Assembly (NCBI GenBank): GCA_040389865.1
Contig: JAZJZM010000007.1
Span: forward strand, 195,271-259,270
DNA from: Bacteroidota bacterium
GTDB taxonomy: Bacteria > Bacteroidota > Bacteroidia > 2-12-FULL-35-15
Direction: 5' to 3'
Length of the DNA stretch: 64,000 bases
The position numbers and the translations under genes were made by a program. The notes below the pieces were generated by a model, which made no database searches, had not been told where the DNA came from, and saw only the letters and a list, made by a program, of their open reading frames with translations. This document shows, piece by piece, positions 35,776 to 44,579 of the stretch (position 1 is its first letter; each line of letters opens with the position of its first letter).

Positions 35776-36480
35776 ATGGAGGTGCCGATGAACTGTATTA
35801 TTATTGATGATGATGAAATGTCCAGAACTGCTTTAAAGCATTTGGTTTCTCAAATTTCGTACCTGAATCTTATTGGAGTTTATAGCAAAGCGAGTGAATC
35901 CCTCTCTGTTTTAGATAGTAAAAGCGTTGATTTAATGCTGCTGGATATAGAAATGCCTGATATCAACGGCCTTGAATTTATAAAAACCATTAAGGCTCCG
36001 CCTTTAACCATTTTTGTTACCTCAAAAAAAGAATATGCTATAGAAGCCTTTGAATGTAACGTAATCGATTATCTTGTAAAGCCTATTTTATTGGATCGCT
36101 TTTTTAAAGCGATAACAAAATCAAAAGAAATTTTCGATACCTATAAAAAAAATGATGCAACCTTAAGTAAGGATTATCTTTTTGTAAAAGTTAATGGAAC
36201 CATTGTTAAGATCAGTATGAAGGAGATACTGTGGGTTGAAGCTTTGGGCGATTATATTAATATTAATACCTCCGAAAAAAAATATACAATTCATTCAACC
36301 ATGAAAACGATGGAGAATAAATTAGCTGATGATAAATTTATTCGGGTACATCGTTCATTCATTATTTCCATTGCCAGCATTAATTCAATTGATGATAATA
36401 TTATAGTAATTAATAAGCAACTCATTCCAATTGGATTGGTTTATAGGGAAAAGCTAATTAAAAGGCTGAATTTATTATAG
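35776..36480 (+). CDS. LytTR-family two-component response regulator (alternative start 35788)
   Basis: Receiver (IIIDDDE...LLDIEMPDINGLEF) + C-terminal LytTR DNA-binding domain. Confidence 0.85.
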   Translation: MEVPMNCIIIDDDEMSRTALKHLVSQISYLNLIGVYSKASESLSVLDSKSVDLMLLDIEMPDINGLEFIKTIKAPPLTIFVTSKKEYAIEAFECNVIDYLVKPILLDRFFKAITKSKEIFDTYKKNDATLSKDYLFVKVNGTIVKISMKEILWVEALGDYININTSEKKYTIHSTMKTMENKLADDKFIRVHRSFIISIASINSIDDNIIVINKQLIPIGLVYREKLIKRLNLL

Positions 36481-36614
36481 GGTCTTACTATCAAATTACT
36501 TTAGTTCAACCTTAAATTTTGCAGGTTCAGCGAATTTATCCTTGATTTTTTCAGTTCTCAAGTAAAAATTAATTGTAAAAAACACCTTATTATAAAAGAA
36601 AGGAGTAATGAATT

Positions 36615-37073
36615 ATGAACGAAGATGTGAATTTACAGGAAATAAATATATTGCTTGTTGAAGATAATCCGGGTGATATACGACTTACAAAAGAAGTCCT
36701 TAAAGAGGGGAAAATAAAAAATATTTTAAATGTGGTTATGGATGGGGAAGAGGCCATACTCTATTTAAAGAAAATAGGCGATCATATTAATGCTGTTACT
36801 CCCGATATTATTTTACTCGATCTTAACTTGCCAAAGAAGGACGGGAGAGAAGTACTTGCCGAAATAAAAGAGGATCCATTACTGAAGCTTATTCCGGTGA
36901 TTGTGTTAACTACTTCTTCGGCCGAACAGGACGTATTAAATATGTATGCCCATCACGCTAATTGTTATATCACCAAACCGGTTGATTTTAGTCAATTTAT
37001 TACTGTTATCAGATCTATTGAAAATTTTTGGCTCACCATTGTAAAGTTACCCCTAAAAAAAACAACTAAATAG
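36615..37073 (+). CDS. Stand-alone CheY/Rcp1-like response regulator receiver
   Basis: [14 protein letters not shown]...[16 protein letters not shown]...VIVLTTS; 152 aa. Confidence 0.85.
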
Positions 37074-37200
37074 ATTTAGGGAGGGGGCGCATAAGTCAGT
37101 CCAACTGCTTCGACAAGCTCAGTATTACGTTCGCGCGATTTGGCCCGAAGTCCGCATTAAAGGGATCATAGGCTATTGCCTAATTCAATTAAATCTATTT
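37068..37200. repeat. Family-1 palindromic repeat copy with 11-bp perfect terminal inverted repeats AAATAGATTTA / TAAATCTATTT and right-end ATTGCCTAATTC
   Basis: Contains CTTCGACAAGCTCAGTATTACGTTCGCGCGATTTGGCC (~85% identical to 44682-44719). Confidence 0.6.
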
Positions 37201-37235
37201 GCCTGCACAGGTATAACACTATAATTTATCTGCAC

Positions 37236-38780
37236 ATGAAAGATTTAAAAAATTTTTCAATTTATCTTAGACAAAATCATTTAAAAGATTTTGCAAAGGA
37301 AAATTTGCGCATAATCAGCACATTGGATATTCCATTGATGAAGCATCCGCTTATAGCCCAATTGACCAAGGAGCAACTGTTTGAACAAACCTTGACTAGT
37401 TTAGATAAATTCCTGCTTTCGATAGAAAACGATACCGCAATTGAAGATCTAAAAAAGAATTTAAAAAATTGGGAAGAAAATAAAACTCCCGGATTTTCCA
37501 GAAATGATGTTCAACTTGCCGACCTGGTTCATATATATTCTGCTCAAAAAAGGGCTCTGCTCAAATTTTTATCTTTTTTTACAAATGATGTTAACGAAGT
37601 TTTAAATATTGTTAATGAACTGGAGGAATACTATGTAACTACCCAGGGTATAGCCTTGGCCATGTTATTAAAAATTCAAAAAGAAACGGAAGCGAGTTTA
37701 TTGGCAAGTGAAAAGCAGCTTCAGTTAATGGTTTCAAATATAAAGGGATACGCCATTTTTATGATAGATACCACCGGCCATATTATAAGTTGGAACCAGG
37801 GTGCGGTAAATACAAAAGGCTATTTGGAAGAGGAAATTATTGGAAAACATATTTCTGTTTTTTATACTTCCGAAGATATAGAACTACAAAAACCGCAACA
37901 AAATTTAAAGATTGCCCGGGAAAATGGCAGGTGTGAAAGCGAAGGTTGGCGCATAAGAAAGGATGGTTCTAAATTTTGGGCGGAAGTTATTTTTACTGCA
38001 ATATATAATGAATTGGGAGTATTAGAAGGCTTTGCAAAAATTACCCATGATATTTCGGACCGTAAAAAAGCAGAGGATGAACTAAAACAAACAACGTTAG
38101 AATTGTTAAGGTCCAATCAGGAACTGGAACAGTTTGCTTATGTGGCATCACATGATTTGCAAGAGCCATTAAGAATGGTAACCAGTTACCTTCAACTGAT
38201 AGAAAAACGATATAAAAATAAATTAGATCAGGATGCAAGTGATTTTATTGGCTTTGCTGTTGATGGAAGTAACCGAATGAGGGTACTTATCCAAAGTCTT
38301 TTGGAATATTCGAGGGTGAATAGGATTAAACCATTTGAACCCATCAATGTGACCGACCTGTTAAATGAAATAGTACAAAATCTAAGTGGTGCGATCGAGG
38401 AACAAAAGGCTACCGTGCTGTTTGAGGAGATGCCAATTATTTATGGCGATTTTGTTCTGATAGGTCAATTATTTCAAAACTTGATCGAGAATGCGATAAA
38501 GTTTAGAGGCGATAAAAACCCACAGGTTTTAATTTCAGCTAAAAAAGAAAACAATGAATATCTATTCTCAATAAAAGATAATGGTATTGGTATGAAAAAA
38601 GAATATCTGGATAAGATATTTGTTATTTTTCAACGACTAAATAGCAAGGAAAAATATCCCGGAACCGGCATTGGACTTGCCATTTGCAAAAAAATAGTGG
38701 AGCGCCACAATGGAAAAATTTGGGTGGAATCGGAAGTGGATAAAGGAAGTACTTTTTATTTTACAATAAAAGAAAAATAG
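37236..38780 (+). CDS. Sensor histidine kinase (unknown N-terminal domain, PAS, phytochrome-type HisKA, HATPase)
   Basis: PAS (GYAIFMIDTTGHIISWN), H-box AYVASHDLQEPLRMV, N/G boxes; start moved to MKDLKNF. Confidence 0.85.
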   Translation: MKDLKNFSIYLRQNHLKDFAKENLRIISTLDIPLMKHPLIAQLTKEQLFEQTLTSLDKFLLSIENDTAIEDLKKNLKNWEENKTPGFSRNDVQLADLVHIYSAQKRALLKFLSFFTNDVNEVLNIVNELEEYYVTTQGIALAMLLKIQKETEASLLASEKQLQLMVSNIKGYAIFMIDTTGHIISWNQGAVNTKGYLEEEIIGKHISVFYTSEDIELQKPQQNLKIARENGRCESEGWRIRKDGSKFWAEVIFTAIYNELGVLEGFAKITHDISDRKKAEDELKQTTLELLRSNQELEQFAYVASHDLQEPLRMVTSYLQLIEKRYKNKLDQDASDFIGFAVDGSNRMRVLIQSLLEYSRVNRIKPFEPINVTDLLNEIVQNLSGAIEEQKATVLFEEMPIIYGDFVLIGQLFQNLIENAIKFRGDKNPQVLISAKKENNEYLFSIKDNGIGMKKEYLDKIFVIFQRLNSKEKYPGTGIGLAICKKIVERHNGKIWVESEVDKGSTFYFTIKEK

Positions 38781-38929
38781 AATAAAAATTACACTCCGGT
38801 AATTTTAAAAATCAGGAAGGTTCCAATCGCTGAATGAAGCGACTTTACTTAATGTTGTGATCACAGGTGCCGGCTAAAACATCCTGATTCAGTGCTTTCC
38901 GACAATAAAAAATTAAACAGATAATAAAC

Positions 38930-43312: not shown

Positions 43313-43360
43313 AAACTGTTTAAATTTTATATAAAAAATGACAATATTGCTTATAAAAGC

Positions 43361-43448
43361 CACCGCTCCTTTCTCGATAGGCTCGAAATGACCATGCGCG
43401 CAGTCGTTTCGAGCGAAGTCGAGAAATCGTGGGAAGGTTAGAGGCAGC
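43361..43448. repeat. Family-1 palindromic repeat (TTTCTCGATAGGCTCGAAATGACCATGCGCGCAGTCGTTTCGAGCGAAGTCGAGAAA)
   Basis: Arms reverse-complementary; downstream of hybrid HK. Confidence 0.5.
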
Positions 43449-43502
43449 TTTGATCAAATTTAAACAGGCTCTTAATAAAACTCATTTTAAAAAAATATTA
43501 AA

Positions 43503-43865
43503 ATGGAAACTGCAAACAACAAAAAGATAGATCTATCCTATTTAAAGGAACTTTCAAAAGGAAGCAATGAATTTATTTGTGAAATGATATCCGTGTTTAT
43601 GGCACAGATCCCCGAAGAGTTGGATGAAATAGATACGTATTGCAATGCAAAAGATTGGCATTCCTTACATCGGGTTGCTCATAAAATGAAACCATCCTTT
43701 TCATTTATGGGGATCAAAGAACTGGAAAATGTTATTTGTTTAATTGACGAATATAGCGCCACTGAAACGAATCTTGATCGATTGCCGGACTTGATCTCAA
43801 CGTTAAAAAACGTTTGTTCTAAGGCTTTACAGGAGCTTGAAATTGAAAAAAAATTATTTCTGTAA
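43503..43865 (+). CDS. Hpt (histidine phosphotransfer) domain protein
   Basis: HRVAHKMKPSFSFMGI matches Hpt HxxKG signature; 120 aa. Confidence 0.75.
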   Translation: METANNKKIDLSYLKELSKGSNEFICEMISVFMAQIPEELDEIDTYCNAKDWHSLHRVAHKMKPSFSFMGIKELENVICLIDEYSATETNLDRLPDLISTLKNVCSKALQELEIEKKLFL

Positions 43866-43982
43866 TTTTATTTTCTGTTGTTTACAGTCTTTTTTGGTGA
43901 TTCGCCATCCAGTTAATTCAATTCAACGAAAATTTTGGGTTTTAGTTAAATGTAAACGTACTACTAACAAAAACTTAATCTC

Positions 43983-44579
43983 ATGGAAACGTTCAATAAT
44001 TTTTCCGCATTTCTGGAAGCTGACAATACCTTATTATCAGGTATAAAGTCATCGAAGCCAGCGCGTTCACATGCATCGCTCAAAAGAGTCGGTGCATCTA
44101 AAAAAACGCAAAAAAAAATAACATTGTTTATCATTGATGACGATATTATGTATCTGAAGGCATTAGAACATTCTATCGCCAATAAAATTAATTCGTTGGT
44201 TATCTATTTGTTTCAAACGGGAGAGGAGTGTTTGCAACAGATGAAATTGAAACCGGCCATCGTTATTTTGGATTATTATTTAAATACAAAGGTGGCGGAT
44301 GCTCAGAATGGTATAGTCGTTTTAAAACAAATAAAAAAAATAAACTCTAAGGCGAAAGTAATTATGTTATCCGGTCAGGATAGCTTAAATATTGCTGATG
44401 ATTGTATGGCAAATGGAGCGTATGATTATATTTCAAAAAGCGACACATCCTTTGTTAGAATAAATAATCTTATCTCAAATATTGTGGAAGATATTAAAAT
44501 TAATGATAGTTATAAAACCTTCCGATATGCTGTATTGGTGGTAATTTTAATACTAATGGCTTATGGTTTAATAAGTTGA
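43983..44579 (+). CDS. Response-regulator receiver domain protein with C-terminal transmembrane anchor
   Basis: ITLFIIDDD...VILDYYLN...KVIMLSG receiver; C-terminal YAVLVVILILMAYGLIS hydrophobic helix. Confidence 0.65.
   Translation: METFNNFSAFLEADNTLLSGIKSSKPARSHASLKRVGASKKTQKKITLFIIDDDIMYLKALEHSIANKINSLVIYLFQTGEECLQQMKLKPAIVILDYYLNTKVADAQNGIVVLKQIKKINSKAKVIMLSGQDSLNIADDCMANGAYDYISKSDTSFVRINNLISNIVEDIKINDSYKTFRYAVLVVILILMAYGLIS

Follow-up and report, generated by a model that had tools for sequence, protein, structure and literature searches.

A stretch of 64,000 nucleotides from a Bacteroidota bacterium (assembly GCA_040389865.1, contig JAZJZM010000007.1, positions 195,271 to 259,270 of the forward strand), referred to here as the window, contains seven consecutive open reading frames (ORFs), g1 to g7, all on the plus strand between positions 35776 and 44579. 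Judged by comparison with related genomes, the seven genes are a conserved functional module, and they probably encode one conserved two-tier phosphorelay of the His-Asp-His-Asp type. More tentatively, this module may represent an undescribed architecture in uncultured Bacteroidota, in which kinases with interchangeable sensors gate a hybrid kinase that is itself controlled by a receiver, and in which an Hpt phosphotransfer protein drives both a clade of LytTR regulators, which would have left LytS-type kinases for Hpt, and a group of tail-anchored receivers that would signal to the membrane; the sensors of g3 and g4 would then be two new families. The cluster consists of the following genes:

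g1, 35776-36480, plus strand: REC-LytTR response regulator (Pfam Response_reg 3e-19, 69.6 bits; LytTR 2e-18, 66.6 bits), with D57 as phospho-acceptor.
g2, 36615-37073, plus strand: single-domain receiver of the Rcp1/RcpA type (Pfam Response_reg only), D69.
g3, 37176-38780, plus strand: soluble kinase with an all-helical N-terminal domain, PAS, HisKA (H326) and HATPase_c (Pfam).
g4, 38930-40897, plus strand: membrane kinase with a transmembrane segment, a helical extracytoplasmic domain, a second transmembrane segment, HAMP, PAS, HisKA (H447) and HATPase_c (Pfam and hydropathy).
g5, 40931-43312, plus strand: hybrid kinase, Response_reg (D62)-PAS_3-PAS_9-HisKA (H425)-HATPase_c-Response_reg (D718) (Pfam).
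g6, 43503-43865, plus strand: stand-alone Hpt phosphotransfer protein (Pfam Hpt 1e-8), H60.
g7, 43983-44579, plus strand: tail-anchored receiver (Pfam Response_reg 5e-13), D97, transmembrane segment 179-198.

The ORF list and Pfam agree with the same-strand cluster of seven genes proposed in a first-pass annotation of this DNA, and all the Pfam domains of g1 to g7, including every one named at that stage (PAS, HisKA, HATPase_c, Response_reg, Hpt and LytTR), score above the gathering threshold. The count of three receivers made at that stage has to be raised to five receiver domains, namely those of g1, g2 and g7 and the N- and C-terminal ones of g5. The phospho-acceptors listed above are all intact; HisKA and HATPase_c are complete in g3, g4 and g5, with the N, G1, F and G2 motifs readable in the sequences, and all the parts of a phosphorelay are encoded, i.e., the C-terminal receiver of g5 (D718), the Hpt protein g6 (H60) and the terminal receivers of g1 (D57) and g7 (D97). 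Hydropathy places transmembrane segments in g4 (residues 16-41 and 209-235) and at the C-terminus of g7 (179-198), as expected for the membrane-anchored receiver that had been proposed, and predicts the other five proteins to be soluble. Orthologue comparison favours later start codons for g1 (35788), g3 (37236) and g5 (40943); the orthologues of g3 are 514 residues long.

The conservation of this arrangement was followed by scanning species-representative genomes with an Hpt alignment, which returned 71 loci that were mapped with the window's own domains; module counts were taken over the 25 loci, from species-level metagenome-assembled genomes (MAGs), with the most similar Hpt. Of these 25, 17 have a LytTR regulator, in every case on the same strand; in seven of the eight loci without one, the sequence breaks off upstream of the cluster. 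A kinase of the g3/g4 type occurs in 21 loci, a hybrid kinase that carries an N-terminal receiver in 20 and a tail-anchored receiver in 21, the latter adjoining the Hpt in 21/25; Rcp-like REC proteins (11 loci) and Usp proteins (9 loci) were also counted. Around the homologues of g7, which are 45-85% identical, the gene order is the same as in the window, distant relatives included: LytTR regulator, Rcp-like REC, one to three kinases with the g3/g4 core and varying sensors, REC-PAS-PAS hybrid, Hpt and tail-anchored REC, with further receivers and a tandem Usp protein often coming after this set. The order is shared by many genomes, and the seven-gene cluster is therefore not a chance juxtaposition.

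The related loci also differ from the window in several ways. In more distant relatives (L004, L005, L007, L008 and L009; L numbers denote individual loci), one to four small receivers and a 300-residue tandem Usp protein come after the tail-anchored receiver; these additions are absent from the window. Two paralogous copies of the module are found in each of the closest species representatives, the MAGs JAZKBF (L018 and L011) and JAZKBX (L015 and L012), the second copy having an Hpt with about 62% identity, a Usp-like gene and an additional receiver between LytTR regulator and kinase. Reduced versions occur in the cultured Pedobacter miscanthi (L055), where the LytTR regulator adjoins a stand-alone Hpt, and in two Chitinophagaceae MAGs (L069 and L071), where a LytTR-Hpt pair is accompanied by a divergently oriented hybrid kinase.

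The wiring between the components is suggested by three comparative patterns. The first concerns the acceptors of g3 and g4. A g3/g4-type kinase is encoded near 24/26 of the hybrid kinases with an N-terminal receiver, one exception being a truncated contig, while among hybrids without this receiver the figure is 2/40, both of them second hybrids in full clusters. Furthermore, g2 and the N-terminal receiver family of g5 have a common alpha1 signature, EDNPGD-RL--(V/Y)LK, which is not found in the receivers of g1 and g7 or in the C-terminal receiver of g5, and alpha1 is a main determinant of kinase-receiver specificity. The co-occurrence, taken together with the common signature, points to g3 and g4 as predicted donors of both g2 and the N-terminal receiver of g5. 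Within the cluster the latter is nearest to g2 (32% identity, 3e-11); an assignment of it as Rcp1-like overall was rejected, the alpha1 signature being all that it has in common with g2. The g2 protein itself has RcpA (1k68, 1e-43) and Rcp1 (1i3c, 1e-39) among its best solved-structure matches, after 5te9 (8e-45), in line with the Rcp1-like single-domain receiver first proposed, and also matches the RPA3017-type structure 4zyl (3e-21); it is a probable first-tier phosphate acceptor or sink.

The second pattern ties g5 to g6, because in 9/25 loci the g5-orthologous hybrid kinase carries the Hpt as a C-terminal fusion; Pfam confirms a fusion of hybrid kinase and Hpt in L033 and in L087, a locus of the LytTR-anchored scan described next. 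The models that score highest with the core of g5 are BarA, LuxQ and TorS, each below its cut-off, and H60 of g6 is invariant among orthologues.

The third pattern concerns the donor of g1. In an independent scan of metagenomes, with the LytTR regulator as anchor, the regulator is directly followed by a HisKA-HATPase-REC-Hpt kinase in 11 loci, plus one cut-off case, and the fuller module is present in three loci; LytS-type kinases adjoin the regulator in only 8/80. In a neighbour-joining tree of 105 regulators, g1, the regulators of the module and those paired with Hpt kinases fall into one clade, apart from the LytS-paired clade. Neither the window region nor any of the Hpt-anchored loci has an ORF with the NPHF-type H-box of LytS-type kinases. 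The adjacency of regulator and Hpt kinase, together with the separation of the g1 clade from the LytS-paired one, thus points to the Hpt as the likely donor for g1.

Taken together, these patterns suggest the following sequence of events, in which each phosphotransfer step and its direction, as well as co-transcription, the DNA site and the input signals, are what we infer. In the first tier, g3 (soluble, with a probable globin-like domain and PAS) and g4 (membrane-bound, with a helical domain, HAMP and PAS) would act as kinases with separate sensors that both phosphorylate g2 and, at D62, the N-terminal receiver of g5; common targets are most likely because the two kinases have a common core with a near-identical surface around the phospho-histidine. 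The g2 protein would act as a modulator or phosphate sink. In the second tier, the activity of g5 would be set by phosphorylation of its N-terminal receiver and by its own two PAS domains; autophosphorylation at H425 would be followed by transfer to D718 of the C-terminal receiver and then to H60 of g6. From there, the phosphoryl group would pass to D57 of g1, giving the transcriptional output, with possible autoregulation through a repeat at 35718-35748, and to D97 of g7, giving a membrane-proximal output or a sink. A branched multi-step relay leading from several sensors to a LytTR output had already been predicted from the window, and the present support for it comes from comparative genomics, namely gene order and strand, the Hpt fusion and the Hpt-associated LytTR clade.

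Several points weigh against a single relay of this kind. The intergenic spacers within the cluster measure 45-190 bp, which is long for an operon, and the Bacteroidota-type -7 motif TAnnTTTG is absent from all of them and from the region upstream of g1, being found before the downstream gene trhO only. By sequence, the nearest structural relatives of the N-terminal receiver of g5 are the receiver of a dual-sensor kinase and NtrC1. In the minimal clusters L033-L035 the LytTR regulator stands directly upstream of a g3/g4-type kinase, the classical layout of a cognate pair. The role of g7 as a membrane-localised output or phosphate sink is guesswork, and the globin-like assignment of the g3 sensor rests on Foldseek matches with E values of 0.2-1. 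Finally, the co-occurrence counts given above are uncorrected for shared ancestry and the neighbour-joining trees were built without bootstrap.

The long spacers and the promoter scans of the cluster that gave no -7 motif, like the mere 32% identity between g2 and the N-terminal receiver of g5, would be compatible with three independent pathways, in which g2 works with g3 and g4 as an Rcp1-type system, g5, g6 and g7 form a separate relay and g1 is an orphan served by a LytS-type kinase encoded elsewhere. Such a partner for g1 would agree with the characterised LytTR regulators, which pair with LytS-type or HATPase_c_5-type kinases (PMC8895600, Table 3). We regard this division as quite unlikely: loci with protein identities of only 45-70% preserve the full order, g1 included, on one strand, an N-terminal receiver on the hybrid goes together with a g3/g4-type kinase, and the neighbours of the g1 clade are Hpt-bearing, none of them being LytS-type. 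In addition, L009 keeps the LytTR regulator beside tail-anchored receivers with no kinase nearby.

The adjacency seen in the minimal clusters bears on another possibility, i.e., that g3 and g4 phosphorylate g1 directly with g2 as a sink, and that g5, g6 and g7 form a parallel or feedback branch which does not feed g1. The order LytTR regulator, g3/g4-type kinase, hybrid kinase in L033-L035 and L030 is indeed the usual regulator-kinase adjacency. However, in at least 14 loci (among them L031, L055, L057, L058, L096, L103, L106, L108, L111 and L119-L122) a regulator of the g1 clade stands beside an Hpt, either stand-alone or part of a kinase, and lacks a g3/g4-type kinase in its neighbourhood. 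The alpha1 sequence of g1 also reads DDDEMSR-AL, unlike the EDNPGD-RL of the receivers that accompany the g3/g4-type core, and a direct transfer from these kinases to g1 is therefore considered unlikely.

The number of single-domain receivers in related clusters, up to four or five per locus, raises a further alternative, in which the relay runs mainly in reverse as a phosphate drain: g5 and g6 would chiefly provide a phosphatase route, which is described for some Hpt relays, the N-terminal receiver of g5, g2 and g7 would be sinks, and g1 would be phosphorylated elsewhere or by acetyl phosphate. A precedent exists in the Rcp-like LhfD of Rhodopseudomonas palustris, which is a sink and is dispensable. 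All three kinases, however, keep full ATP-binding and H-box motifs with no sign in the sequence of a phosphatase-only function. This reading concerns direction, which sequence cannot decide, and it is given a very small probability only. The forward two-tier relay through the Hpt protein to g1 and g7 is retained as the preferred reading.

Multi-kinase phosphorelays are well known, and LytTR regulators belong to the most abundant regulators of Bacteroidota. The chemistry of the cluster is ordinary, and its design varies a familiar theme and does not amount to a new type of system. Like ArcB, BarA/GacS, TorS and LuxQ-LuxU-LuxO, it would use His-Asp-His-Asp chemistry, as read here from sequence only, with an Hpt that stands alone as in LuxU or is fused as in ArcB and BarA, depending on the genome carrying this module. 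Unlike in ArcB, BarA, TorS and LuxQ, the N-terminal receiver of the hybrid adds an upstream tier, the terminal regulator is of the LytTR instead of the NarL, OmpR or NtrC type, and there is an extra, tail-anchored receiver.

The nearest described design is the Lhf low-light system of R. palustris (LhfA, RpBphP2, RpBphP3, LhfD/RPA3017 and LhfE/RPA3018), in which two tandem phytochrome kinases both phosphorylate an Rcp-like sink, LhfD, and a REC-kinase acts downstream (PMC6879726); this system is a precedent for the logic proposed for the first tier. Both clusters combine a receiver-containing transcription factor, two tandem kinases with a phytochrome-type core, an Rcp-like receiver and a kinase with an N-terminal receiver. 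In contrast to Lhf, the kinases here lack PAS-GAF-PHY, the output is LytTR and not helix-turn-helix, the kinase of the second tier carries two PAS domains as well as a C-terminal receiver, and the Hpt protein and the tail-anchored receiver have no Lhf counterpart. The Cph1-Rcp1 and CphA-RcpA pairs are likewise related through the receiver family of g2 and the HisKA/HATPase core family of g4, and differ by their bilin-binding photosensory module, which is missing here, and by the best core match of g4, which is the non-phytochrome kinase 8f71.

As for the output, g1 resembles AgrA, AlgR, ComE and BtsR/YpdB in combining REC with LytTR; a candidate site with a 21-bp periodicity lies at 35718-35748. 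It differs from the characterised LytTR regulators in that its clade is found beside Hpt-bearing kinases or stand-alone Hpt proteins; no LytS-type (PF06580) or HATPase_c_5/AgrC-type kinase is encoded alongside g1. A literature search, incomplete in coverage, returned nothing relevant on an Hpt-fed LytTR regulator or on the tail- or membrane-anchored receiver family. An Hpt-fed LytTR clade, if true, would widen the known wiring rules of the LytTR family. The tail-anchored receivers are a recurrent family of which no studied member was found, and they suggest a membrane-localised output or sink. Furthermore, the cluster is a clean natural example of modular rewiring, with one kinase core and swapped sensors, and adds two sensor domains that belong to no family, one of them probably a non-haem globin. 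Parts of the model are genetically testable in cultured relatives that carry reduced versions, for example the LytTR-Hpt pair of P. miscanthi.

The g7 protein has a basic N-terminal extension of 45 residues, a divergent REC domain and a single transmembrane segment at the extreme C-terminus. No solved structure matched it at E<1e-6, and its hydrophobic C-terminal 17-mer is kept in 105/120 homologues.

The cores of g3 and g4 are 82% identical over 236 residues and 80.7% identical over 706 ungapped nucleotides; 70 of the 194 conserved codons differ synonymously, the longest identical run is at most 20 nt, and 18 residues are identical from the H-box through DHp helix 1. On these sequence data the pair is best described as an old duplicate under selection. 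In a neighbour-joining tree (no bootstrap) the cores of g3 and those of g4 from the window, L011 and L012 are sister groups, and they lie apart from the cores that other genomes combine with these two sensor types. Because of this sister relationship, the tree suggests that the core alone was duplicated or converted within this lineage and joined to older, unrelated sensor domains. The kinase halves called near-identical in the first-pass annotation are similar, at the 82% just given, but not near-identical; the tandem duplication that went with them was overstated, as the tree suggests a lineage-specific duplication or conversion restricted to the core.

The same annotation had linked the kinases to phytochrome systems. 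After 8f71, the best solved-structure matches of the g4 core are the bacteriophytochromes 8sgk and 8avv (about 1e-33), and the solved-structure matches agree with placing the kinase cores and g2 in sequence families that phytochrome systems use. GAF and PHY gave no match at E<=0.01 in g3, g4 or g5, and Pfam finds neither in any protein of the cluster, which agrees with the reported lack of a photosensory PAS-GAF-PHY module. A phytochrome system was rejected, as the defining photosensory module was looked for and is absent. The further idea of rewired sensing, i.e., descent from a phytochrome, finds no support; the core is widespread, and related clusters combine it with at least four kinds of sensor region (globin-like, MASE1, helical periplasmic and no recognisable sensor). 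The sensors of the two kinases in the window are:

37236-37751, plus strand: N-terminal sensor domain of g3, 172 residues, predicted globin-like.
38930-39634, plus strand: sensor module of g4, two transmembrane segments and about 170 extracytoplasmic residues.

The N-terminal domain of g3 is a conserved family, of which 17 members were aligned; it has no Pfam match, and a profile search against the sequences of the PDB gave none at E<=10. Its AlphaFold2 model is of good quality (pLDDT 89.6, pTM 0.78), and nearly all of the top 50 Foldseek matches, which are weak (TM-score 0.5-0.69, E 0.2-1), are globins or globin-like phycobiliproteins, including AfGcHK (5ohf), DosC (4zvb), BpeGReg (6m9a) and pXO2-61 (3pmc). 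The predicted fold thus resembles, as in AfGcHK and pXO2-61, a sensor globin placed N-terminal to a signalling output. Unlike globin-coupled sensors, the domain has no sequence similarity to globins and no conserved proximal histidine, and the fold match is weak. No histidine is present in the invariant or nearly invariant columns of the 17 family members, and because there is no conserved proximal histidine, haem binding is unlikely. The N-terminal domain of RsbR is a non-haem sensor globin. From the model, with moderate confidence, the g3 domain is a probable non-haem sensor globin as well.

The sensor module of g4 is unusually well conserved, with 51-94% identity across 12 loci, and in L027, L029 and L032 a module of this type is attached to hybrid-type kinase cores. 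It has no Pfam match; its AlphaFold2 model, built from an alignment of four rows, is all helical with medium confidence (pLDDT 78), and a fold search with this model gave no convincing match.

At the end of the proposed relay, g1 has the acidic pocket of a receiver (D11-D13, D57 and K), and its best NCBIfam models are BtsR and LytR, both far below their cut-offs. Characterised LytTR regulators bind 9-bp direct repeats 12 bp apart, i.e., with a 21-bp periodicity. One such candidate precedes the gene:

35718-35748, plus strand: candidate LytTR box, imperfect direct repeat AAATTCCGTAA / AAATTCGTTAA with 21-bp spacing, about 58 nt upstream of the g1 start.

This box is kept at the equivalent position in the three closest genomes (L011, L012/L002), and the motif is not recognisable in more distant loci. 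Two pairs of the motif were counted in the window versus 0.09 expected from shuffles, a count that is circular, as the motif was derived from 35718-35748 itself. The repeat raises the possibility that g1 regulates its own expression, which is put forward as a hypothesis only, because the repeat is not seen in more distant loci. A second pair of half-sites similar to AATTCGTTAA, with 21-bp spacing and three mismatches in total, lies on the minus strand at 37580-37621, inside the coding region of g3, and is probably due to chance.

Another set of sites had been suggested at 7137-7291, in the spacer between two giant adhesin genes of the type IX secretion system (T9SS), where ACGAATT repeats were proposed as LytTR-binding direct repeats. 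The element is instead a perfect 19-bp inverted repeat, GCCACGAATTTCACGAATT, around 117 bp, with a second, internal palindrome. The AATTCGT core is common to this element and to the repeat upstream of g1, and this 7-mer occurs in the window at chance frequency (14 observed, 12.7 expected). The ACGAATT repeats were rejected as LytTR sites, since their geometry is inverted and not that of direct repeats spaced by 21 bp, and since AATTCGT occurs no more often than expected by chance; the element looks like a small palindromic or mobile one, similar to a miniature inverted-repeat transposable element.

The cluster is bordered by genes unrelated to it, an epimerase and a Spi-inhibitor-like protein upstream and trhO, with its own Bacteroidota-type -7 motif at 44860, directly downstream of g7. 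The sole strong terminator, a bidirectional one at 46075-46102, follows trhO. In a terminator scan, the plus-strand spacers of the cluster are free of terminator-like sites apart from a weak 5-bp stem between g3 and g4. A sigma-70-type promoter scan of the region stayed at background level, and Rfam recognised a single tRNA in the window, distant from the cluster. The spacer between g5 and g6 contains one further structure:

43363-43432, plus strand: stable hairpin inside a G+C-rich insert of about 110 bp.

The 131-nt stretch at 43340-43470 folds at -45 kcal/mol (z -3.97). The hairpin has one copy in the window and no T-run after it, and was not called by the terminator scan. The orthologous spacer measures 26-36 bp in L002, L011 and L012, where the G+C-rich insert is absent, and the hairpin is probably an inserted palindromic element, outside the core of the system.

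The rest of the window consists of housekeeping genes and three giant T9SS cargo proteins of 2370, 2311 and 2664 residues, encoded in tandem at 13-7125, 7479-14414 and 16618-24612, with PKD repeats and a C-terminal CHU_C type IX secretion signal; no connection between these proteins and the phosphorelay was found. A TPR-SpoIIE phosphatase of the PP2C type is encoded at 48812-51055, about 4 kb downstream of the cluster, and a similar gene is found in L009 near the set of LytTR regulator and tail-anchored receivers, while in L005 and L022 a SpoIIAA-like DUF7793 gene lies between the Rcp-like REC and the first kinase; the phosphatase and the DUF7793 context may represent a partner-switching side branch. 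At the end of the window, 59601-64000 encodes a TonB-dependent receptor (Plug), a DUF4154 (YfiR/HmsC-like) protein and a sensor protein with a transmembrane segment, HAMP and PAS, which starts at 62640 and continues past the window end. In L009 a pair of Plug and DUF4154 genes likewise follows the set of receivers and Usp protein.

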